Of a stretch of 64,000 bases of DNA, positions 2,898-42,351 are shown piece by piece. The notes under the pieces are model-generated. The model saw only the letters and a program-made list of their open reading frames with translations. It was not told the origin of the DNA and made no database searches. The number at the start of each line of letters is the position of its first letter. Within the stretch, counting starts at the first letter, position 1. The stretch covers positions 1 to 64,000 of IMG/VR virus record IMGVR_UViG_3300049172_000080; one strand, given 5' to 3'. The DNA comes from a virus. Both the position numbers and the translations under genes were made by a program.

Positions 2898-2976
2898 GCC
2901 TGTGTCCTGTCTGCTGTGTTCCTGTGGCCTCCGCCGCCGGTGGCGAGGGAGGGGAGCCGGTGGAACGTGGCTCCGG

Positions 2977-3059
2977 TGCGCGGCCGGGTCTCGAACCCGG
3001 ATCTGTTGGACTGGATCGGGACAGTCCAACTGCTCTGTGCCTGTTGAGCTACCGCGCGT
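2977..3059 (-). ncRNA. tRNA-like element with aberrant anticodon arm
   Basis: 83 nt on the minus strand. Acceptor CGCGCGG/CCGCGCA (C1:A72 mismatch), U8, D arm GCTC-AACAGGCACA-GAGC, T arm CCGGG-TTCGAGA-CCCGG. The anticodon arm is a 9-bp stem GTTGGACTG/CAGTCCAAC with an 8-nt loop TCCCGATC. Confidence 0.45.
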
Positions 3060-3281
3060 CCAGCGTTTTACGGCCGCCGCCCGACCCCGATCCGCCCGCA
3101 CGGTGTTGGTGTTTCGCCCTTGGGCTACTTGCCTCACGGCTGGTGCGTCGTTGGGTCGCTGTGGCCCCGGGGCCGGGGGATGAGCCCCGGGGCAGCCTCT
3201 GTGGAGTTGATCCGGGAGAGTTTGTGACGATGAGTCAACTACGTCTGTCTCGCCCGGACTTGCTGTGCTCCGTATGCTTTT

Positions 3282-3312
3282 ATGATACCCCGGAAGCTGA
3301 TTTAGTTAAACC
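3282..3312 (-). promoter_or_regulatory. candidate leftward promoter plus AT-rich dyad copy (GATTTAGTTAAACC, 3299-3312)
   Basis: Minus strand: TTAACT (3309-3304), 16-nt spacer, TATCAT (3287-3282); located just after the exonuclease stop and upstream of the tRNA-like element. Confidence 0.4.
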
Positions 3313-3316
3313 CTTC

Positions 3317-4588
3317 TCAGCCGCCGGGTTCGGAGAGTTCCTTGAGCCGGTTCTGCATGACGGCCACCAGCTCGTCCACCTCCTCGTCGGGCAGGCCAGC
3401 CTTCTTCGCCTCCTTCCACACCGCCGAGGCGTCGCCATTGGACGTGACCGCGAGGGCCTTGTCCTTGAGGGACGGCGGCCGGACCGTGGTCCGCGTGGTG
3501 ACGGCCGGCTCGGGCCGCTGCGGCGTGAATGTGTCCGCCGCCTCAGAGACCATGACCGGGGAGGCGAGGGTGCGCACCTTGCGCCACTCCCTGACCCGCT
3601 CGCACAGGATGGCCGCGTTCCAGCCGGACTCCAGGTCGACGCCGTAGACGGTCGGCGTCTTCTCGGACGTCTTGTCCACCGGCAGGTGGATGATGACCCC
3701 GGCGTCCGTGCGGACCTTCGTTCCAGGCTTGTCGAACCGGCTCAGCGGGTCCGGCTCCCAGACCTCGTCGTGCCGGTCCCACACGCCAGCCGTGTTGATG
3801 CCCTGCGCGTACGTGCTGAGCTGGATCGCGTGCTCTTGCCAGCCGTAGTCCAGGTCCCGGCCCGTCTTCTTGTCGCCGATCACGTACTCACCCGGCGCCA
3901 GCCGAACCTCCGCCCGCCCGATCTTCAGCACGAGCGGCTTGGTGACCTTGTAGCAGTTGTCCGAGGTCCCGGCGACGCCGTACTGCTTGACGACCGTGGT
4001 GAACTCGATGAGGTGAGGTACCGGTTCGAGCCCGGTCTCCTCCAGCAAGCGGATGTACGTCTCCACCATCTCGCGGCAGTCCGGCGGAATCTGGTCCATG
4101 ACGCTGCGCGGTCCACCAGGAGAGTGCCACGCCCGGTCCACCATCTCCGTAAAAGAGTGCATTGCGGTGCCGTCGTTGGCGGCCACCTTGGCACCGGCGG
4201 CGTCCTTCAGATCCGCCGTCAGCTCGTCCAGCAGTTTCTTGTCCTCCCGGACGTGCTTGCCGTGCGCCCGCCGCACGAGGTCCGGGCGCATCGTCGCCCC
4301 GAGCAGCGCCATGCGCAGGCCCCACTGGGACAGGGCGTACGTGTCGCTGATCGACTTGGCGAACGTCGTGGACCGGGTCCACGCGGTCTCCTTGCCGGTG
4401 TCCGGGTGCGGGATCAGGTACCGGCCGTACCGGTCGCGCTTGGTCTCCTTCTCACCGTGCGCGCCCGAGCCGCCGGCGAGGAACTGCGCCGCCGCGTCGG
4501 CCTGGTTCTGCGTCCCGTTCACCGCCGGGGCCGACGGCCGCCCGCTGCCGAGGAAGGCTGCTGCCGCCGCACTCTGGTCAGTCGTCAC
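3317..4588 (-). CDS. alternative model: stand-alone PD-(D/E)XK exonuclease from GTG 4588
   Basis: In-frame GTG at 4588-4586, 8 nt upstream of the stop of the embedded ORF 4578..4787; would give a 423-aa nuclease. Confidence 0.45.
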   Translation of the reverse strand: MTTDQSAAAAAFLGSGRPSAPAVNGTQNQADAAAQFLAGGSGAHGEKETKRDRYGRYLIPHPDTGKETAWTRSTTFAKSISDTYALSQWGLRMALLGATMRPDLVRRAHGKHVREDKKLLDELTADLKDAAGAKVAANDGTAMHSFTEMVDRAWHSPGGPRSVMDQIPPDCREMVETYIRLLEETGLEPVPHLIEFTTVVKQYGVAGTSDNCYKVTKPLVLKIGRAEVRLAPGEYVIGDKKTGRDLDYGWQEHAIQLSTYAQGINTAGVWDRHDEVWEPDPLSRFDKPGTKVRTDAGVIIHLPVDKTSEKTPTVYGVDLESGWNAAILCERVREWRKVRTLASPVMVSEAADTFTPQRPEPAVTTRTTVRPPSLKDKALAVTSNGDASAVWKEAKKAGLPDEEVDELVAVMQNRLKELSEPGG

Positions 4589-19690: not shown

Positions 19691-20415
19691 ACAAAGCGAT
19701 CCTCTGCGAGCGGTGGGAAATGCCGCTCGCAGAGCAGAACGACAGCAGCCGGTGGTTCGTCGACTGGGTCCGCCGGGACGCGAAGCAGGCCAGCGCGCAC
19801 GTCACCGCCGGGTACTGCGCCTACCGCGCGCTCAGCCTGGTCTACACCCCGGACGAGCTGCGCACGGCGGAGGAGTTCTTCGGCGGGCTCGGCTGCCAGT
19901 CGCTCATCATCAGCGATCGGTGGCAGCCGGAGCAGCACACCATCCACGAACATCACCCAGCCGCCGTGGAGCACCTGCGCACGCTGCTGCCGTGGGCCGA
20001 CGTATGGCGCTCCGACTCCTACGCCGTGGAGCCGGTCGGGGCGGACCTGGTCGGGCTGGACTTCGGGGACCTGACGGCGTGGCGGCTGCGCGAGGGTCAG
20101 GCTCACCGGCGGCTGCTCGATGCGGTGTTCGCCCGGAGGCCCCGGGCCGTGGTGCTCACGGACATCGCCGGGCCCCGGTTGCATCTGCACCGCGAACGCT
20201 ACAGCGAGGTGCTCGGCGCCGTCAGTCTCCCCAGCTATCGGGCGTACCTGGAGGCGCTGGTGCGCTGGTTCCAGACCACCTACGACTACGCGCTGGTGCG
20301 CGGCTACTGGCAGAGCTGGTCCACCGTGCTGGCGCTTGTCCCGGCGGAGAACTTCATCGGGCTGGGGTCGCTGGAACCCGTGCCCGACCGGCCCCGAGGA
20401 ATCGAGATCCTGTGA
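19687..20415 (+). CDS. hypothetical protein of the modification operon
   Basis: GTGA overlap upstream and TGATG overlap downstream; 242 aa; no motif recognised. Confidence 0.65.
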   Translation: MNKAILCERWEMPLAEQNDSSRWFVDWVRRDAKQASAHVTAGYCAYRALSLVYTPDELRTAEEFFGGLGCQSLIISDRWQPEQHTIHEHHPAAVEHLRTLLPWADVWRSDSYAVEPVGADLVGLDFGDLTAWRLREGQAHRRLLDAVFARRPRAVVLTDIAGPRLHLHRERYSEVLGAVSLPSYRAYLEALVRWFQTTYDYALVRGYWQSWSTVLALVPAENFIGLGSLEPVPDRPRGIEIL

Positions 20416-21284
20416 TGGACCTGGACACCTGGCTCAGCCCCGTGGAGAACCGGGACGGCCGCCTCTACAAGCGCGAAGATCTCGCCGCGCTGCCGGTCGG
20501 CGTCAACGGCTCCAAGCTGCGCGCCTGCGAGCACCTGATAGGCCGAGCCGCCCGTGCTGGCGCCAAGCGCGTCATCTCCGCCGCGTCCGTGCTCTCCCCG
20601 CAGAGCGCCATGGCGGCCGTCCTGGCGCAGCGCCACGGCCTCGGCTGCACGGTCGTCGTCGGAGGCACGAAGCCCAGTACGGCTATCCGCCACCCCTCGG
20701 TACGCATGGCCGTGGACCACGGCGCCTCACTGGAGTTCGCGGCCGTCGGCTACAACCCGGCGCTCCAGTCCTACGCGCGCAAGCTCGCCGCCCTCGACCC
20801 CGGCGCCTACTGGCTCCAGTACGGCATCACCACCCCACCCGCCGCCGGCCGCGAGGAGCTACGCGCCTTCCACGACGTTGCCGCCCGGCAGACCGCCAAC
20901 CTGCCGCCCGGTGTGGAGACGCTGGTGCTGCCGTTCGGCTCGGGCAACACCGGCGCCGGAGTGCTCATGGGCCTGGCGCAGCGCCCACCGGCAGACCGTC
21001 CGGAGCGCATCGTCCTCGTCGGAATCGGACCCGACCGGCGGGCCTGGCTCGCGGACCGGTTCGCCGCGATGGGCCTGCGGCTCCCTGCCTACGAGCACCT
21101 CGACCTGCATGGCTCCGGGTACGCCGCCTACGGCGACAAGATGCCCGGCACCGCCGACGGCATCCGCCTGCACCCCACCTACGAGGGCAAGGTCGTGCGC
21201 TACCTGAACGAGAAGCGGCCCGAGTGGTGGGCCCGGCGCGACGGCACGACGTGCCTGTGGATCGTGGGAGGGCCGATCTCGTGA
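20415..21284 (+). CDS. PLP-dependent enzyme, fold type II (Trp-synthase-beta / ACC-deaminase-like)
   Basis: YKREDL..VNGSKLR lysine motif and FGSGNTGAG phosphate-binding loop; 289 aa. Confidence 0.7.
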   Translation: MDLDTWLSPVENRDGRLYKREDLAALPVGVNGSKLRACEHLIGRAARAGAKRVISAASVLSPQSAMAAVLAQRHGLGCTVVVGGTKPSTAIRHPSVRMAVDHGASLEFAAVGYNPALQSYARKLAALDPGAYWLQYGITTPPAAGREELRAFHDVAARQTANLPPGVETLVLPFGSGNTGAGVLMGLAQRPPADRPERIVLVGIGPDRRAWLADRFAAMGLRLPAYEHLDLHGSGYAAYGDKMPGTADGIRLHPTYEGKVVRYLNEKRPEWWARRDGTTCLWIVGGPIS

Positions 21285-21856
21285 TCAGCGAGCTGCTGTA
21301 CATCGTCGGCCCGCCCGGCGCGGGGAAGTCCACCCTCGCGCGGGAGCTGCGCACCGGCTGGGACACGGAGGTCGACCGGCACCACCCCGTTCCGCACACT
21401 CGGTTCAACCACCCTGCGACCGGCCGGACCATCGGCCTGGAGCTGGGGGTGCCCCGGCCGGAATTCCCCGGCACCGACGCCCTGGCCATGGACATCGGGC
21501 CCCGGGCGCTCCAGTTCCTCTCCTCCAGCTACCTGCACTTCGCCCTCGGCGAGGGCGCCCGACTGGCCACGCGGCCGTTCCTCGGAGGACTGGCGCAGAA
21601 GGGCGTCGCCGTGACCGTGGTGGAGCTGATGGCGTCGCAGGCGCTGCTGGACGAACGGTGGCGCGAGCGCGGAGCGAAGCAGAACCCCTCCTGGCGCAAG
21701 GGCGCGGCCACCCGGGCGCAGCGCATAGCCGAGTGGGCGGCCGGAGCGCCGGGCGTTCGGCTGCGGTGCATCGACGTGGGGGAGTACAGCCTGTCGGAGA
21801 TGGCGGAAGAGGTGCGCGACGTCTTCCCGCCGATAGCCCTGGAGGTGGCTCGGTGA
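21281..21856 (+). CDS. P-loop kinase (candidate 5-hydroxymethyl-base DNA kinase)
   Basis: GTGA overlap; LYIVGPPGAGKSTLAREL Walker A; 191 aa; role inferred from context. Confidence 0.6.
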   Translation: MISELLYIVGPPGAGKSTLARELRTGWDTEVDRHHPVPHTRFNHPATGRTIGLELGVPRPEFPGTDALAMDIGPRALQFLSSSYLHFALGEGARLATRPFLGGLAQKGVAVTVVELMASQALLDERWRERGAKQNPSWRKGAATRAQRIAEWAAGAPGVRLRCIDVGEYSLSEMAEEVRDVFPPIALEVAR

Positions 21857-27518: not shown

Positions 27519-27637
27519 GACTCTTGAGACCGGGCTCGCTACAGCCCGACTTCAGGAACACCGCCCCGACGGGTTTCCGGGACGGCGTTTCGCGTTCTCC
27601 AGCGGCCTGCCACCCTGCCAGGGAGGCAGGCCGCTTT

Positions 27638-29893
27638 GTGCTCCGGAAACCGGCGGGCGCAGCTCCACCGACAATGGCCCCCATGGTGGACCGGATGCTG
27701 AGCCGCGCGGCGGCCGAGAAGCTGCTGATGCATGCGCGCCTGGTGACCGAGCCGCGCTGGACTCCGCTGCCCCACCAGGTTCCGCCCGAGGGCGACTGGT
27801 ACGGATGGCTGCTGCTGGCGGGCCGTGGCGCCGGGAAGACGGACGCCTGCGCGAGGTACGTGCACGAGCACGTCATGGGCCCGCCGTGCCTGCCCGGCCC
27901 CATCCCGCACTGGATAGGCATCATCGCGCCCACCCTCGGCGACGCGGCCACCTCCTGCTTCGCCGGTCCGTCCGGCCTTCGCGTGCACAGCCCCGAGGCG
28001 CACATGACCACCCGCCAAGGCGGCACGATCATCAAGTGGCCCAACGGCTCCGAGGCGAAGGTGTTCGGCGCGCACAGCCCCGAGGACATCGAGCGTCTGC
28101 GGTCCGGCGGTAACCGCTGCGTGGCGGAGGGCACGCTGGTGCGCACCGAGCACGGGGAGCGGCCCATCGAGACCATCCGGCCCGGGGACCGCGTGTGGAC
28201 CCGCAACGGCCTGCGCTCCGTGCTGGCGGTCTGGGACAACGGCGTGAAGGACGTGGTGCGTTACGACCACGACGCCGGGCCTACGTGGCTCACCCCGGAC
28301 CACAAGGTAGCCACGGCTGACGGCTGGAAACCCGTTTCGCTCGTCCAGCCAACGGAGACAATCTTTACATGGGGAAATACGGGGAATCGATACGTTACGA
28401 CGGCATCACGTGGCACGCCGGACCGGACGACTACTACCGGAGCACGCGCCACGGTCTGCTGCACCGGTACATGTACGCCCGCGAGGTCGGCCCGATACCC
28501 GCAGGGATGCAGGTGCACCACCGCAACCACGACAAGCGGGACAACCGCGTCAGCAATTTCGTACTGCTCGCCCCTGGCCAGCACTGGCACGAGCACCACG
28601 GCGAGCGCGGGGAAGACTGGCACAGCAAGGGCGGTCGGGCGACCTGGGACCATGCGCAGTACCGGGAGTTCACCTGCCAGCGGTGTGGCGAGGTCTTCCG
28701 CTCCCGAGGGACGACCGGAGCGCGGTACTGCTCCGGAGCCTGCCGGGAGGCTGTTGCTCCGTCACGAACACGGGAAGAACGGGTGTGCAGCGTGTGCGGC
28801 GACACGTTCGAGTGCCAGCGCCGGAACCCGACCCGCACCTGTTCGCGCCGGTGCACTTCGGTCCTCGCGTACCAGTCGCGCCGCGCGTGTGTACGACCTA
28901 ACGGTTGAGCACGATCACGAGTTCTTCGCGGGCGGCCTGCTCGTCTCCAACTGCCTGGCTTGGCTGGAGGAACTGGCCGCCTGGCGCTACCTGGACGACA
29001 CGTGGGACCAGATGCGGTTCGGTCTGCGTGTCGGCCCGCGCCCGCACTGGATCGCATCCACCACCCCGAAGCCCCGGACCCTCATCAAGCGCCTGGCCGC
29101 TGGCGAGATAGCCAACGTGGTGCGCACGCACGCGTCCATGTACGACAACCCTCACCTGCCCGAGGACATTCGGGCCGCGCTGGAGGATGCGTACGCCGGG
29201 ACGCAGATCGGCCGCCAGGAGCTGCACGCCGAGATTATCGACGCCGACGAAAACGCGCTGTGGACCCGAGGCACGATCGACGACCACCGGGTGCGCCCGG
29301 GTGACGTGCCACACCTCATCCGCAAGTCCATCGGCGTGGACCCGTCGGGCGGCCGGGGCGAGCAGGGCATCGTCGTCGTGGGCAAGGCGATGGTGTCGCA
29401 GGAGCCTGACGATCCGAGCCGGCCGCTGAAGCAGCGCATGCCGCTGGCGCACGGCTACGTCCTCGCCGACCGCACGTGCCACCTCTCCCCGGACGGCTGG
29501 GGCCGCCGCGCGGTGCAGGCAGCCGTCGACTACGAGGCGGACGACATCTGCGTGGAGGTCAACTTCGGCGGGGACATGGCCGTCCACACCATCCGGGCCG
29601 CCGCCGACGCCATGGGCATCAACATCCCGATCCGCACCGTGCGCGCGACGCGGGGGAAGAAGGTGCGCGCGGAGCCGGTCAGCGCGCTGAGTGAGCAGGG
29701 CCGTTGGCACATGGTGGGGGAGTTCCCTGAGCTGGAGGACCAGATGTGCACCTGGTACGACGAGCTGGACTGGAGCCCCGACCGGCTGGACGCGATGGTC
29801 TGGCCGGCCTGGCACCAGCGCATCGTGAAGGCGACGATGACCGGCACGACGTCGTCCAAGGGCCTGGCCACAGCGGCCCGCACAATCGGGTGA
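27638..29893 (+). CDS. terL: terminase large subunit, interrupted by an intein
   Basis: Walker A LLLAGRGAGKTDA; Walker B-like CLAWLEELAAW after intein removal; C-terminal nuclease-like region; start ambiguous (GTG 27638 after GGGAGG, or ATG 27674). Confidence 0.85.
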   Translation: MLRKPAGAAPPTMAPMVDRMLSRAAAEKLLMHARLVTEPRWTPLPHQVPPEGDWYGWLLLAGRGAGKTDACARYVHEHVMGPPCLPGPIPHWIGIIAPTLGDAATSCFAGPSGLRVHSPEAHMTTRQGGTIIKWPNGSEAKVFGAHSPEDIERLRSGGNRCVAEGTLVRTEHGERPIETIRPGDRVWTRNGLRSVLAVWDNGVKDVVRYDHDAGPTWLTPDHKVATADGWKPVSLVQPTETIFTWGNTGNRYVTTASRGTPDRTTTTGARATVCCTGTCTPARSARYPQGCRCTTATTTSGTTASAISYCSPLASTGTSTTASAGKTGTARAVGRPGTMRSTGSSPASGVARSSAPEGRPERGTAPEPAGRLLLRHEHGKNGCAACAATRSSASAGTRPAPVRAGALRSSRTSRAARVYDLTVEHDHEFFAGGLLVSNCLAWLEELAAWRYLDDTWDQMRFGLRVGPRPHWIASTTPKPRTLIKRLAAGEIANVVRTHASMYDNPHLPEDIRAALEDAYAGTQIGRQELHAEIIDADENALWTRGTIDDHRVRPGDVPHLIRKSIGVDPSGGRGEQGIVVVGKAMVSQEPDDPSRPLKQRMPLAHGYVLADRTCHLSPDGWGRRAVQAAVDYEADDICVEVNFGGDMAVHTIRAAADAMGINIPIRTVRATRGKKVRAEPVSALSEQGRWHMVGEFPELEDQMCTWYDELDWSPDRLDAMVWPAWHQRIVKATMTGTTSSKGLATAARTIG
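28118..28951 (+). mobile_element. intein (278 codons) in terL
   Basis: Cys1 CVAEGTLVRT (block A), LTPDHKVATADGW (block B), VYDLTVEHDHEFFAGG (F), LLVSN followed by Cys+1 (G); inserted immediately before the ATPase Walker B motif. Confidence 0.8.
28369..28908 (+). CDS. HNH endonuclease ORF nested in the intein in a different frame
   Basis: 179-aa ORF with its own ATG; GMQVHHRNHDKRDNRVSNFVLL..HWHEHH HNH core plus CQRCG..CSGAC and CSVCG..CSRRC pairs; the terminase frame over the same DNA is T/A/S/G/R low-complexity. Confidence 0.7.
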   Translation: MGKYGESIRYDGITWHAGPDDYYRSTRHGLLHRYMYAREVGPIPAGMQVHHRNHDKRDNRVSNFVLLAPGQHWHEHHGERGEDWHSKGGRATWDHAQYREFTCQRCGEVFRSRGTTGARYCSGACREAVAPSRTREERVCSVCGDTFECQRRNPTRTCSRRCTSVLAYQSRRACVRPNG

Positions 29894-31699: not shown

Positions 31700-32950
31700 A
31701 TGACCGACACCACCACATCGCTCCCGGTCTACGAGCGCCGGGACATCCCCGAGCAGCACCGGCACCTGCGCACGATGACGGAGCTGAAAGCCGACCGCCT
31801 GAAGCCGGCCGAAGGGCAGCAGCCCGTGGCACTGGTCCGGGTGTACCGGCGCGGCCACGGCTGGGGCGAATTCCCCCTGTATGACCCCGCTGGTGCGGCG
31901 AAGATGCGCCCGCTGTCCGCCAAGCAGCAGCGTGCCATCGAGGCCCGGCGGACCTGCCCGGAGTGCAATGAGGTGCGCGGATACGTCGTCTACATCAGGT
32001 GTAACGACTGCCGGGCGAAGGCGCAGCAGGAGGCGCAGGACCGGCAGGCGCGCACCTGCGAGCGGTGCAGGCGCGAGGCCGGGGCCGCGCTGCCGAAGGA
32101 CGTGCATGGCTGGCCGGCGTGCGATCCGTGCCGGATCCGCTACGCCATTTGCAAGCAACTCGCCGATGAGCGAGCGGCCGTGTGGCGCCGTACCTGCCCC
32201 GGATATCCGGGCCACGACTGCACGGTGGAGACCGCGACGGATGACGAGATCACCGAAGCATGGAACGCCGGGGACTACACCGGGCCCTGGCGGTGTCCGC
32301 CGTGCGGCGAGGCGTATGAGCGGTGGTACGAGGCTCAGCGCCACCAGGTCGGGGAGACGCGGGAGCGGCAGGTGGCCGGGCTGTCCGCATGGGCGCGGGA
32401 CGCTCTCGCCGACCCGGCCGTGGTCGTCCTGGACACGGAGACGACCGGGCTGCACGACGGGGCACGCATCGTCGACCTGGCTGTGCTGACCGTCGGCGGG
32501 GACGTCCTCGTGAACACGTTGCTCGACCCGGGCGAGCCGATCCCGGCCGAGGCGACGGACATCCACGGCATCACCGACGTGGACGTCCAGGGCCAGCCCC
32601 GGTTCGGGGACGTCCTGGTGCAGCTCACCGGGGCGCTCGTCAACCGCCGGTGTCTGATCTACAACGACACGTTCGACGTCGGCCGGCTGCGCCACGAACT
32701 GACGATGCACTACCGCGAGGCCGGCCACGGCGACCCGGCTGCCTCGGCAGCCGCGTGGCTGGAGACGATGCGGTTCGAGGACGTGATGATGCCGTACTCG
32801 GACTGGTACGGGGAGTGGTCGGACTACCACGGGAACTACTGCTGGCAGCCGCTGTTCGGCGGGGACCACCGGGCCGCGTCGGACTGCCGCGCGGTGCTGG
32901 ACCGACTGCGCGAGATGGCGGCTGGGGTTGCTGACCCGGCTGAGGCATGA
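31700..32950 (+). CDS. DnaQ-like DEDDh 3'-5' exonuclease with a Cys-rich N-terminal region
   Basis: VVLDTETTGL (Exo I), YNDTFDVGRL (Exo II), HRAASDC (Exo III); N-terminal CPECN..CNDC..CERC..CDPC pairs. Confidence 0.8.
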   Translation: MTDTTTSLPVYERRDIPEQHRHLRTMTELKADRLKPAEGQQPVALVRVYRRGHGWGEFPLYDPAGAAKMRPLSAKQQRAIEARRTCPECNEVRGYVVYIRCNDCRAKAQQEAQDRQARTCERCRREAGAALPKDVHGWPACDPCRIRYAICKQLADERAAVWRRTCPGYPGHDCTVETATDDEITEAWNAGDYTGPWRCPPCGEAYERWYEAQRHQVGETRERQVAGLSAWARDALADPAVVVLDTETTGLHDGARIVDLAVLTVGGDVLVNTLLDPGEPIPAEATDIHGITDVDVQGQPRFGDVLVQLTGALVNRRCLIYNDTFDVGRLRHELTMHYREAGHGDPAASAAAWLETMRFEDVMMPYSDWYGEWSDYHGNYCWQPLFGGDHRAASDCRAVLDRLREMAAGVADPAEA

Positions 32951-40494: not shown

Positions 40495-42351
40495 GTGCCG
40501 TGGTACGACGCATTCCGGGGGCGTGTGGCCCGGGAGCCTGCCCCGCTGCCCCAGTCGCCGCCGGAGGCGCTGACGGCCGCCGCTGCTCCGCCTCCCGGCC
40601 CCGAGACCAAGTTCCTGCGCCGCACAGAGCAGTGGCAGGAGGAGGTCTGGCGCTTCCACGACACGCTCGGCGAGTTCAATTACGGCGTCGGGTGGTTGGC
40701 CAACATGCTGTCCCGGGTGCGCCTGCGCGCCGGCCGCCTGAAGCCGGGCTCCGATGAACCGGACATCGTCACCTCCGGTACGGCCGCTGACCTGATGATG
40801 CTGTTCGGCGGAGGGGTCGCCAGTCAGTCACAGCTCATGAGGCGCCTGACCGTACAGCTCTCCCTCCCGGGCGAGGGGTACCTGGTCGGCGAGACAGTGG
40901 GCAAGACCGAACGCTGGCAGGTCCGTTCCGTCGACGAGATCCGCGTGCAGTCCGGCAAATACCAGGTGATGGACGAAGAAAGCGCCACCACCGGCCAGGA
41001 CTGGCGCGACCTCGCCGAGGATCACCACGTCGTCCGCGTCTGGCGCCCGCACGACCGGTACTACCACATGGCAGACTCCCCGGCGCGCAGCGCCCGCGAC
41101 ATCATGCGAGAGCTGGAGCTGGTCAACCGGAAGATCACGGCCGAGTACCTCTCCCGCCTGGCCTCCGCCGGACTCCTCCTGCTCCCCGATGAGCTGAGCT
41201 TCCCGGTCCGCGAGGAGTTCGCCAACGACCCGGACAATGCCAACCCGCTGATGTCCGAGTGGATCGAGATTGCCGCGACGGCGATCCAGAACCCGGGAAC
41301 CGCGTCCGCCGTGGTTCCCATTCCGCTGGTCGGTCCGGCCGAGGCGATCGACAAGGTCAAGCACGTCGACTTCACGTTGAAGATCGACGAAAAGATTATC
41401 GAGAAGCGGGACAGCGCGATCAAGCGCCTGGCAACCAAGTTGGACATGCCGGCCGACGTGCTACTGGGTCTGGGTGACGTCAACCACTGGTCTGCCTGGC
41501 AGTTGGAGGAGGGCGCTCTCAAGACGCATATCGCCCCCATCGCTGAGCTGATCTGCGACGCCCTCACGCGCGGCTATCTCCAGCCCCGGCTGGAGGCGTC
41601 CGGCGAGGATCCGGCCGCCTGGGTCGTCTGGTACGACATGAGCGAGCTGGCTCTGAGCCCGGACCGCAGCGGCAACGCGACTCTGGCCTACGACCGGATG
41701 GAGCTGGGTGGCGCCGCGTACCGGCGAGAGCTGGGGTTCGACGAGGACGACGCGCCTTCGCCCGAAGACTTGAAGGAACAGGCCCTGAAGGTCATCATCC
41801 GCACGCTGCCGTCCGGCGCCGCGTCCGCCCTCGCCCAGCTCATCAGCGAGGACGTCCCGCAGATCGTCCCCGTCTCCCCGCAGGACCCCGGGACCGCCGA
41901 GGCCGTGCAGCAAGGCGACACCCCGCCGCCGGCGAACCAGCAGCCGACCGAGGAGGGCGCGGGCCGCGCGGCGCCGCCGTCCGACGAGCCGTCGCCGACG
42001 CAGGACCGCACCGGGCCGCCCTCCCGGGACCAGCGCGCCACGGCCGAGCGGGCGCAGCTCCTCGTGCAGCAGGCCCGGACGCAGCACATGCTCCGAGTCG
42101 GTGCGGCCAACCGGTGGGACCTGCTGCATCCCGGCATCTGCGGCGAGCACGAGTACTCCTGCCCGTTCACACACGCAGTCGCCACGGCGGCCCCGTCCGT
42201 ACGGCCCGGGACGTCGGGGACGTACCTGTGCCACCTGGACGCCTTCGGCCGCCTAGTTCTCGACGGCCGTAGTCCCTACGCGGACACCGCCGCCATGATC
42301 TCCACGTCACTGGTACCGAGGGCGGTGAACGGCCATGCCCCCGCGCACTGA
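40495..42351 (+). CDS. portal protein
   Basis: 618 aa, GTG after GGGGAGG; position ahead of MuF/protease/capsid; general resemblance to actinophage portals. Confidence 0.7.
   Translation: MPWYDAFRGRVAREPAPLPQSPPEALTAAAAPPPGPETKFLRRTEQWQEEVWRFHDTLGEFNYGVGWLANMLSRVRLRAGRLKPGSDEPDIVTSGTAADLMMLFGGGVASQSQLMRRLTVQLSLPGEGYLVGETVGKTERWQVRSVDEIRVQSGKYQVMDEESATTGQDWRDLAEDHHVVRVWRPHDRYYHMADSPARSARDIMRELELVNRKITAEYLSRLASAGLLLLPDELSFPVREEFANDPDNANPLMSEWIEIAATAIQNPGTASAVVPIPLVGPAEAIDKVKHVDFTLKIDEKIIEKRDSAIKRLATKLDMPADVLLGLGDVNHWSAWQLEEGALKTHIAPIAELICDALTRGYLQPRLEASGEDPAAWVVWYDMSELALSPDRSGNATLAYDRMELGGAAYRRELGFDEDDAPSPEDLKEQALKVIIRTLPSGAASALAQLISEDVPQIVPVSPQDPGTAEAVQQGDTPPPANQQPTEEGAGRAAPPSDEPSPTQDRTGPPSRDQRATAERAQLLVQQARTQHMLRVGAANRWDLLHPGICGEHEYSCPFTHAVATAAPSVRPGTSGTYLCHLDAFGRLVLDGRSPYADTAAMISTSLVPRAVNGHAPAH

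Follow-up and report, generated by a model that had tools for sequence, protein, structure and literature searches.

A candidate mobile terminase intein carrying an HNH_3 endonuclease open reading frame in an overlapping frame

The window analyzed here is a stretch of 64,000 nucleotides of viral DNA (positions 1 to 64,000 of the IMG/VR record IMGVR_UViG_3300049172_000080), in which the gene for the large terminase subunit (terL) is interrupted by an intein whose central DNA also encodes an HNH_3-type protein in a second reading frame. The host open reading frame (ORF) runs without stop codons from 27524 to 29893 on the plus strand, and ATG 27674 is its probable terL start. Its product is a large terminase, matched by both Pfam Terminase_6N and Terminase_6C. 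The N-terminal extein (27674 to 28117, plus strand; 148 amino acids, starting at ATG 27674 or possibly at ATG 27683) contains the Walker A motif GRGAGKT. It is followed on the same strand by an intein of 278 codons (28118 to 28951), which interrupts terL at GGNR/C, and by the C-terminal extein (28952 to 29893; 313 amino acids, Terminase_6N/6C), which comprises a Walker B-like LAWLEE, the remaining ATPase domain, and an RNase H-like nuclease domain. With GRGAGKT upstream and LAWLEE after the junction, a Walker B motif directly after the intein is plausible. A sequence search of the spliced TerL against the PDB returned no match.

Across the intein, the terL frame reads GGNR / CVAEGTLVRT...LTPDHKV...VYDLTVEHDHEFFAGGLLVSN / CLAWLEEL. 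Both splicing nucleophiles, Cys1 (28118-28120) and Cys+1 (28952-28954), were found, as was the terminal Asn (28949-28951). The N-terminal splicing half (intein residues 1-88; 28118 to 28381, plus strand) holds block A with Cys1 and block B with the motif TPDH, and Pfam Hint_2 matched this end of the intein with 38.2 bits (cut-off 28.4). The C-terminal splicing half (residues 236-278; 28823 to 28951, plus strand) holds blocks F and G (VYDLTVEHDHEFFAGGLLVSN) and the terminal Asn. The Pfam Intein_splicing match at this end was weak (17.4 bits, under the cut-off of 35.8), and a Hint-C hidden Markov model (HMM) built for the analysis gave 68 bits. In an alignment of 11 intein sequences, T59, D61, and H62 of block B and the terminal N278 were invariant, and position 1 of the relatives' inteins is Cys or Ser. 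The two halves are joined in the host frame by a linker rich in T, A, S, G, and R (residues 89-235; 28382 to 28822, plus strand), which is predicted to be disordered. The host frame is continuous in the window, which therefore lacks the two marks of a split intein, namely an N fragment that terminates at a stop codon and an Int-C encoded by its own ORF.

The second ORF (28369 to 28908, plus strand; 179 amino acids and TGA) is in the -1 (+2) frame relative to terL. It begins at the end of Hint-N, and its stop codon falls inside the coding region of block F. HNH_3 (PF13392) was its sole Pfam family (E=5.7e-13, 48.7 bits, cut-off 24.8), and PHROG 15471 (HNH endonuclease) was matched with E=6e-26. 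The ORF contains an HNH catalytic core (VHHRNHDKRDNRVSNFVLLAPGQHWHEHH, approximately 28513-28599) and two zinc-ribbon modules of the form CxxC...CxxxC (approximately 28675-28743 and 28786-28854), and it is preceded by GGAG (28354 to 28357, plus strand), a possible Shine-Dalgarno (SD) core located 11 nt before the ATG. Residues H51, N59, N63, H72, and H76 and eight Cys were invariant in 36 homologs, and the same five catalytic residues were also invariant across five distant nested copies. Five HNH ORFs, comprising that of the window and distant nested copies, shared 26-33% identity with the catalytic His and Asn and the zinc-binding Cys unchanged. An earlier reading of this DNA, made from its letters alone (the sequence-only reading), had described a terL-frame intein with Cys1, a terminal Asn, and Cys+1, and a 179-codon HNH ORF in another frame that ends inside block F, and all of these were found at the positions given above. 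It had also placed the GGAG 12 nt before the ATG and estimated the low-complexity stretch at about 175 codons; both features exist, with a spacing of 11 nt and a length of 147 residues (89-235 in the AlphaFold2 model), respectively.

The predicted structures agree with this division of the DNA between two frames. The HNH ORF, folded with AlphaFold2 using 35 homologs, had a mean pLDDT of 83.6, with values above 90 at residues 11-70; its best PDB match in Foldseek was 1U3E (I-HmuI; probability 0.98, 127 aligned columns), and its C-terminal modules resembled YacG-type zinc ribbons. In the AlphaFold2 model of the host-frame intein, residues 4-88 and 236-278 had a pLDDT of approximately 90 (85-91 in the C-terminal half), and Hint-N contained beta strands. 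The 147-residue stretch from 89 to 235 had a pLDDT of approximately 30 and no secondary structure. The best PDB matches of the host-frame intein were the mini-inteins Mtu RecA (top; E 7.5e-6, TM 0.79 on the target), Ssp DnaB, and gp41-1.

When both frames were used as tblastn queries, they matched the same phage records, in different frames and at positions that overlap. Three phages (Tetrasphaera phage TJE1, Rhodobacteraceae phage LS06-2018-MD07, and Acinetobacter phage Highwayman) have an annotated terL that is a single continuous ORF with Hint flanks, within which an HNH homolog lies at +2/-1; the contig MT838676 has the same nested layout without annotation. A census of 165 loci, including 160 further loci of HNH relatives from IMG/VR and GTDB genomes, was classified by HMMs for HNH, Hint-N, and Hint-C. 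In 66 loci, one host ORF without stops carried Hint-N before and Hint-C after the HNH, each at +1 to the HNH frame; this count is a lower bound, as the first Hint HMMs were built from four sequences and missed divergent inteins. Approximately 22 loci that were initially classed as free-standing or partial proved by eye to be nested in more divergent inteins, bringing the nested total to approximately 88. A split layout was found in 26 loci, the HNH was in frame with the Hint halves in none, and the remaining loci had no nearby Hint domain or only partial evidence of one. Relative to the HNH frame, the host frame was at +1 in all nested loci.

Nested loci were found in isolated phages (TJE1 and Highwayman), in Streptomyces and Corynebacterium genomes, and in IMG/VR contigs, and the HNH_3/intein lineage extends over Actinobacteria, Proteobacteria, Firmicutes, Bacteroidota, and archaeal metagenome-assembled genome (MAG) contigs. 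Ten diverse hosts of the nested ORF were scanned, and terminase domains of two Pfam families were detected in seven and only Hint or intein domains in three; two of the ten, one with TerL and one with Hint domains only, came from archaeal MAG contigs. An HMMER search of 1.84 billion representatives yielded 3,311 HNH relatives at E<=1e-10, of which the top 150 were nearly all stand-alone proteins of 160-330 amino acids. An in-frame Hint-HNH_3 fusion was sought among the long representatives, and no Hint domain was present in any of the ten candidates scanned. A megablast search of terL against the phage collection gave no match, and thus there is no close sequenced phage.

Several loci of the census and related records showed further peculiarities. 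Two separate Hint regions per host ORF were detected by Pfam in L014 (1165-4398, 1078 amino acids), which is a TerL by Pfam, and in L128 (536-4012, 1159 amino acids), a Halobacteriales MAG locus with Hint domains only; each probably contains two inteins. The complete chromosome of Allohahella sp. A8 carries the nested HNH/intein locus twice (L098 and L100; 750293-756793 and 802679-809179), approximately 52 kb apart, with identical locus coordinates and HMM scores, which suggests two related prophages or a duplication. In the chromosome of Streptomyces sp. IBSNAI001 (L166, 3001-4450), the HNH is called, the C-extein appears as a 280-amino-acid fragment, and the N-extein is uncalled. P0092, a record of 334 amino acids that is 99% identical to the window, begins inside block F, and in other records the nested HNH was missed by the gene callers.

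The distribution of substitutions was compared between the two frames. The closest relatives with the same insertion site and ATG were L005, L006, L007, and L085 (Streptomyces caniscabiei), with HNH identities to the window of 90%, 63%, 49%, and 47% and intein lengths of 837, 840, 840, and 825 nt, respectively; the intein of the window is 837 nt long, and all these lengths are multiples of three. The relatives differed from the window by 53 to approximately 216 substitutions in the central region. Between the window and L005, the 53 central substitutions were distributed over HNH codon positions 1, 2, and 3 as 12, 5, and 36, and the ratio of nonsynonymous to synonymous substitution rates (dN/dS) in the aligned HNH-ORF region was 0.16 in the HNH frame versus 1.44 in the host frame. 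In Hint-N, the host-frame dN/dS was 0.09. More distant comparisons gave dN/dS values of up to 0.4-0.5. From the dN/dS contrasts and the substitution pattern, it follows that selection changes frame at the Hint/HNH borders. The sequence-only reading had proposed that homologs be aligned to find frame-switch points, and had considered that the low-complexity frame might turn out to be the conserved one; constraint was found to move from the host frame in Hint-N to the HNH frame in the center, where the ratios against L005 point away from a conserved host frame. On this comparison, the absence of stop codons appears to be the only constraint on the linker sequence itself.

That absence was examined by synonymous resampling and by counting stop codons. 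Openness of the host frame gave P values of 0.0001-0.0008 in Highwayman and 0.004-0.016 in MT838676, and the third frame of these AT-rich cases contained 25-29 stops. At a GC content of 0.30-0.45, all 18 of the well-scoring nested loci had no host-frame stop, free-standing homologs averaged approximately seven, and the +2 (third) frame had approximately 23 in the nested and free-standing groups alike. Over the HNH family, the third frame contained 8-25 stops and the +1 frame 0-7; keeping stops out may simply be easiest in the +1 frame of a coding sequence.

For initiation of the HNH protein, 62 non-redundant nested loci were analyzed. An ATG was present at the expected HNH N-terminus in 59 of them, and the HNH frame opened a median of 24 nt upstream of this ATG, which was conserved in all five members of the window's clade. 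SD cores at -18 to -4 occurred in 50% of the loci compared with a background of 17% (P=5e-9). Slippery heptamers of the form X XXY YYZ were found in three of the 62, and a manual read of 28321-28369 in the window revealed none. The 3' end of the HNH ORF overlapped the Int-C/block F coding region by 1-61 nt. Independent initiation is much likelier than frameshifting because of the conserved ATG, the close upstream opening, the SD enrichment, and the rarity of heptamers. In the same 62 loci, HNH and Hint divergence were correlated (Mantel r=0.39, p<=0.0005), and thus both parts travel together.

Alleles of terL with and without the intein were identified among the TerL homologs. The spliced extein was 91% identical over 99-100% of the length to intein-less TerL proteins of Streptomyces massasporeus (P0001) and of metagenomes; P0001 and P0002, two of these intein-less proteins, are 458-459 amino acids long. 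P0001 reads GGNR|CVVWAEEL at the junction, and the corresponding region of the intein-less allele is GGNRCVVWAEEL. Among the 120 best TerL homologs, the intein was absent in most and present in approximately 11. Full copies are carried by P0006, P0021, P0105, and P0107. In P0008 (Streptomyces sp. NRRL S-455) and P0019 (locus L167), the HNH catalytic core has been deleted at the same intein site with the terL frame still open; the -1 frame of L167 (1001-3001) retains only the zinc-ribbon half, a decayed endonuclease stage. P0041, a TerL homolog of 571 amino acids, has a mini-intein of approximately 125 amino acids at GGNR|C that lacks the HNH region. Inteins with Ser1 occur at the same terL site, and L168 (P0098), whose DNA was read, also has a -1-frame HNH. 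Read from these sequences, the empty, full, decayed, and mini alleles would form the series expected of a homing cycle. As separate observations, P0041 has at its N-terminus what resembles the C-terminal end of another intein, located at the Walker A P-loop (...GVWNHN|SGKTDAC), and P0088 and P0093 have inteins at other TerL positions, one lying four residues downstream (GGNRCATW|C...HN|CEEL) and one in the nuclease domain (ELEDQL|C...HN|CTWYPELDW). The TerL family of the window is an intein hot-spot.

In the 26 split loci, the TerL N fragment with Int-N ends in a stop codon near the HNH start, and Int-C is a separate ORF overlapping the 3' end of the HNH ORF. Int-C has the +1 offset in 25 of these loci and the +2 offset in the remaining one (L141). 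Examples are L017, L056, L087, L036, L011, and L024, and Int-C has its own Met in L056, L087, and L036. In L056, the Int-N ORF (1388-2902) is followed by the HNH ORF (2956-3612) and the Int-C ORF (3602-3856). By this layout, the split loci look like natural trans-splicing terminase inteins with an HNH between the halves.

The element in the window is very probably a mobile class-1 intein in terL of a high-GC (Streptomyces-type) phage, with its homing-endonuclease gene overprinted on the intein and not fused to it. Such an overprinted arrangement was one of the two possibilities considered in the sequence-only reading, and it has gained support from the predicted structures, the conserved ATG, the enriched SD cores, and the colinearity of the extein with intein-less TerL. 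We infer splicing, translation of the HNH ORF, and the cleavage target of its product from the sequences. Ribosomes translating terL would cross the endonuclease gene, reading it at +1, to produce the 147-residue disordered linker between the Hint halves, which would fold together and excise themselves by means of Cys1, TPDH, the terminal Asn, and Cys+1 to leave a TerL of 461 amino acids. Ribosomes that start separately, on the -1 frame's internal ATG 28369, would yield the 179-amino-acid nuclease, an I-HmuI-like HNH_3 protein whose two zinc-ribbon modules would bind DNA. Where a mixed infection supplies an intein-less terL, the nuclease would nick or cut it near GGNR|C, and recombinational repair would copy the whole intein-plus-HNH cassette into the recipient (homing).

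Some of the results weigh against the overprinted mobile intein. Openness of the host frame in the window alone is not significant (P of approximately 0.17-0.42 by synonymous resampling with the HNH protein fixed, at 69% GC), as the sequence-only reading had expected of high-GC DNA, and it becomes significant because of the homologs and not because of the window. The nested loci were themselves defined by a stop-free host frame, which makes the stop statistics partly circular; synonymous resampling and the free-standing control offset this only partly, and that control is contaminated by nested loci. The canonical blocks A, B, F, and G that had been claimed for the intein are present as motifs, although the penultimate residue is Ser in place of the usual His. 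A penultimate His is common in inteins and not obligatory; the Ser-Asn ending also occurs in TJE1 and LS06-2018-MD07, and Highwayman has His-Asn. The structural match of the HNH model to I-HmuI is modest (E=0.03, TM 0.38, 19% identity). The GGAG before the HNH ATG is shared by L005 and absent in L006 and L085, and since the SD is unconserved within the window's clade, expression of the HNH may be weak or may proceed by another route.

The other possibility raised from the sequence alone was a sequencing or assembly artefact, in which two compensating indels split a canonical in-frame intein-HNH fusion. A 540-nt off-frame that stays open is not improbable at 69% GC, as the P value for the window indicates, but the same offset recurs in independent loci, at least 66 of them, that come from isolates and RefSeq genomes as well as from metagenomes, complete chromosomes included. 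It is also kept by the four relatives down to 47% HNH identity with intein lengths in multiples of three, the in-frame version occurs neither in the 165 loci nor in the top 150 of the 3,311 representative clusters, and conservation extends to the ATG start and to the HNH-frame stop before it; the artefact is effectively refuted. Programmed frameshifting could in principle connect the two frames, either by two shifts (-1 to the HNH frame after block B, then back before block F), giving a bifunctional intein, or by a single shift that yields an N-extein/Hint-N/HNH fusion. The two frames overlap on one strand, phages use -1 frameshifting elsewhere, and some high-GC loci (TJE1 and L005) have an HNH frame that stays open for a long way upstream. 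Most loci, however, have an HNH-frame stop shortly before the conserved ATG (median of 24 nt), heptamers are as rare in the interval as stated above, the second shift back would have to occur within the overlap of at most 61 nt with block F, and gene callers report the HNH as a complete ORF of 165-192 amino acids in 35 relatives. We regard frameshifting as highly improbable.

Even with independent initiation, the HNH ORF of this copy could be a silent or decaying relic, and the element a fixed mini-intein that does not home and whose linker is junk. Decay has occurred in relatives (the core-less L167/P0019 and the mini-intein of P0041), the clade does not conserve the SD, and dN/dS rises to 0.4-0.5 in the more distant comparisons. 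Against this stand the intact ORF with every invariant catalytic and zinc-binding residue, the dN/dS of 0.16 and the 36 third-position changes among 53 substitutions relative to the closest relative, and the ATG shared by all five clade members, which make a relic unlikely. A role in DNA packaging would account for the position of the HNH ORF inside a terminase gene, with the protein domesticated as a packaging cofactor (as for the HNH proteins of HK97-like phages) and kept in terL for co-expression. HNH proteins adjoining terminase genes are reportedly packaging components, and some free-standing homologs adjoin portal or terminase genes (e.g., PAE1 and CL2). The most closely related TerL genes (70-91% identity), however, mostly lack both the intein and the HNH, and the HNH is therefore dispensable. 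In addition, the HNH_3/I-HmuI-like family is of the homing type, the HNH is always accompanied by a Hint domain or a split Hint, and decay series exist, so domestication for packaging has very little probability.

For the overprinted homing intein, the lack of any in-frame fusion in the 165 loci and the top 150 clusters bears on its fate. Since no fusion was found, the overprinted state looks stable rather than short-lived, and it grades into split inteins; the view of the sequence-only reading that it represents an intermediate en route to fusion is not favored. A wider proposal is that the -1-frame HNH_3 and its Hint host form a single old composite mobile element, for which overprinting is a stable, selected end-state and the direct source of split terminase inteins through a stop in the host frame. 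We advance it tentatively, as possible rather than probable, from the facts that a fusion was never seen, that one frame offset prevails, and that the overlap of the HNH 3' end with block F is fixed across bacterial and archaeal viruses. If true, it would revise the usual view that an endonuclease gene, once it has invaded, ends in one of two ways, by in-frame fusion or by fracture of the gene, and would provide a natural contiguous-then-split series for studying the origin of split inteins. The comparative and selection evidence indicates that a homing-endonuclease gene can reside inside an intein without joining the intein protein, which fits 'splicing first' models, with mini-inteins invaded by endonuclease genes that were free-standing. 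Annotation pipelines break terminase genes that carry a nested HNH. For protein engineering, a natural cis-splicing intein that apparently tolerates a 147-residue unstructured insert, with naturally split relatives, is of some interest.

Elsewhere in the window, an ORF of 578 amino acids with a C-terminal part resembling the terminase small subunit lies approximately 6 kb upstream of terL (20120-21856), and the portal gene lies approximately 10 kb downstream (40495-42351). An ORF resembling a DNA polymerase exonuclease (31700-32950) and others lie in between. Genes of a packaging module are not usually ordered in this way. ARAGORN reported a tRNA-like gene with a two-base anticodon (tRNA-???) at 2975-3058 on the minus strand.

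The arrangement closest to that of the window was reported by Gosselin, Arsenault, and Gogarten (bioRxiv 10.1101/2025.01.02.630785), who described actinophage inteins with the homing endonuclease (HEN) in a separate frame and proposed invasion by a free-standing HEN. Their example from Gordonia phage Keitabear gp2 is, like the window, a contiguous large-terminase intein with a HEN ORF that is enclosed by the splicing halves and lies in 'frame 3' (+2/-1) of the same strand, and the host-frame stretch has no recognizable structure; our check of this locus (L165) placed terL at 514-2901 and the ORF at 1386-1841, at +2/-1 relative to the host. The Keitabear ORF was not among the tblastn matches of the window's HNH and is by eye of the classical Endonuclease VII type (CxxC...VDHDH...) and unrelated, whereas the window has an I-HmuI-like HNH_3 with two zinc ribbons. 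The TerL of Keitabear also belongs to PF04466 and its intein to another lineage, unlike the Terminase_6N protein of the window. That survey covered PhagesDB only, whereas the lineage of the window spans several bacterial phyla and archaeal MAG contigs, and its supplement lists no out-of-frame HNH_3 case. The HEN of the window is outside the families reported in the out-of-frame architecture (EndoVII-like, LAGLIDADG, and VSR-like).

Phillips, DeSimone, and Gogarten (bioRxiv 10.64898/2026.09.14.751524) described an out-of-frame LAGLIDADG homing endonuclease in a cyanobacterial dnaX intein, and the part of the literature they cite from Gorbalenya (1998) concerns a dnaX intein with an out-of-frame endonuclease. 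As in the window, the endonuclease occupies an overlapping frame of a contiguous intein, with a low dN/dS in its own frame and an elevated one in the host frame over the overlap. There too, empty alleles occur alongside mini-inteins, and the arrangement was read as secondary invasion of a mini-intein. The two cases differ in that a LAGLIDADG endonuclease resides in a cellular replication gene in dnaX and an HNH_3 in a phage packaging gene here.

The split relatives of the window can be compared with the fractured genes of Dassa et al. [quoted passage not shown] In those genes, the 3' end of the HEG overlaps the Int-C coding region by 6-69 bp, compared with 1-61 nt here, and 26 TerL-associated relatives of the window's HNH match the layout. 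A split intein with an HNH between its halves is not listed by Dassa et al., and the window itself differs in having a host frame without a stop and a contiguous intein, which is predicted to splice in cis. Arsenault et al. (2025; PMC11855218) described a similar 'hidden HNH' in the ShiLan-domain insertion of phage DNA methylases, where the out-of-frame HNH ORF has its own start, is enclosed by a stop-free host ORF, and raises the same question of translation. Hint splicing domains are absent there and the insertion is thought to be kept in the mature protein, whereas the insert of the window is flanked by intein blocks. I-HmuI of Bacillus phage SPO1 (PDB 1U3E), the best structural match, is likewise an HNH homing endonuclease, with nicking activity, but is encoded by an intron and not associated with an intein, and the window protein has two C-terminal zinc ribbons in addition. 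In the searchable literature, we found no description of the TJE1 intein or of an overprinted terminase intein of the HNH_3 type. The type of architecture has already been published; as far as that literature shows, the HNH_3 family, the intein lineage, the wide distribution, the fixed frame offset, the lack of in-frame fusions, and the link to split inteins are the new points.

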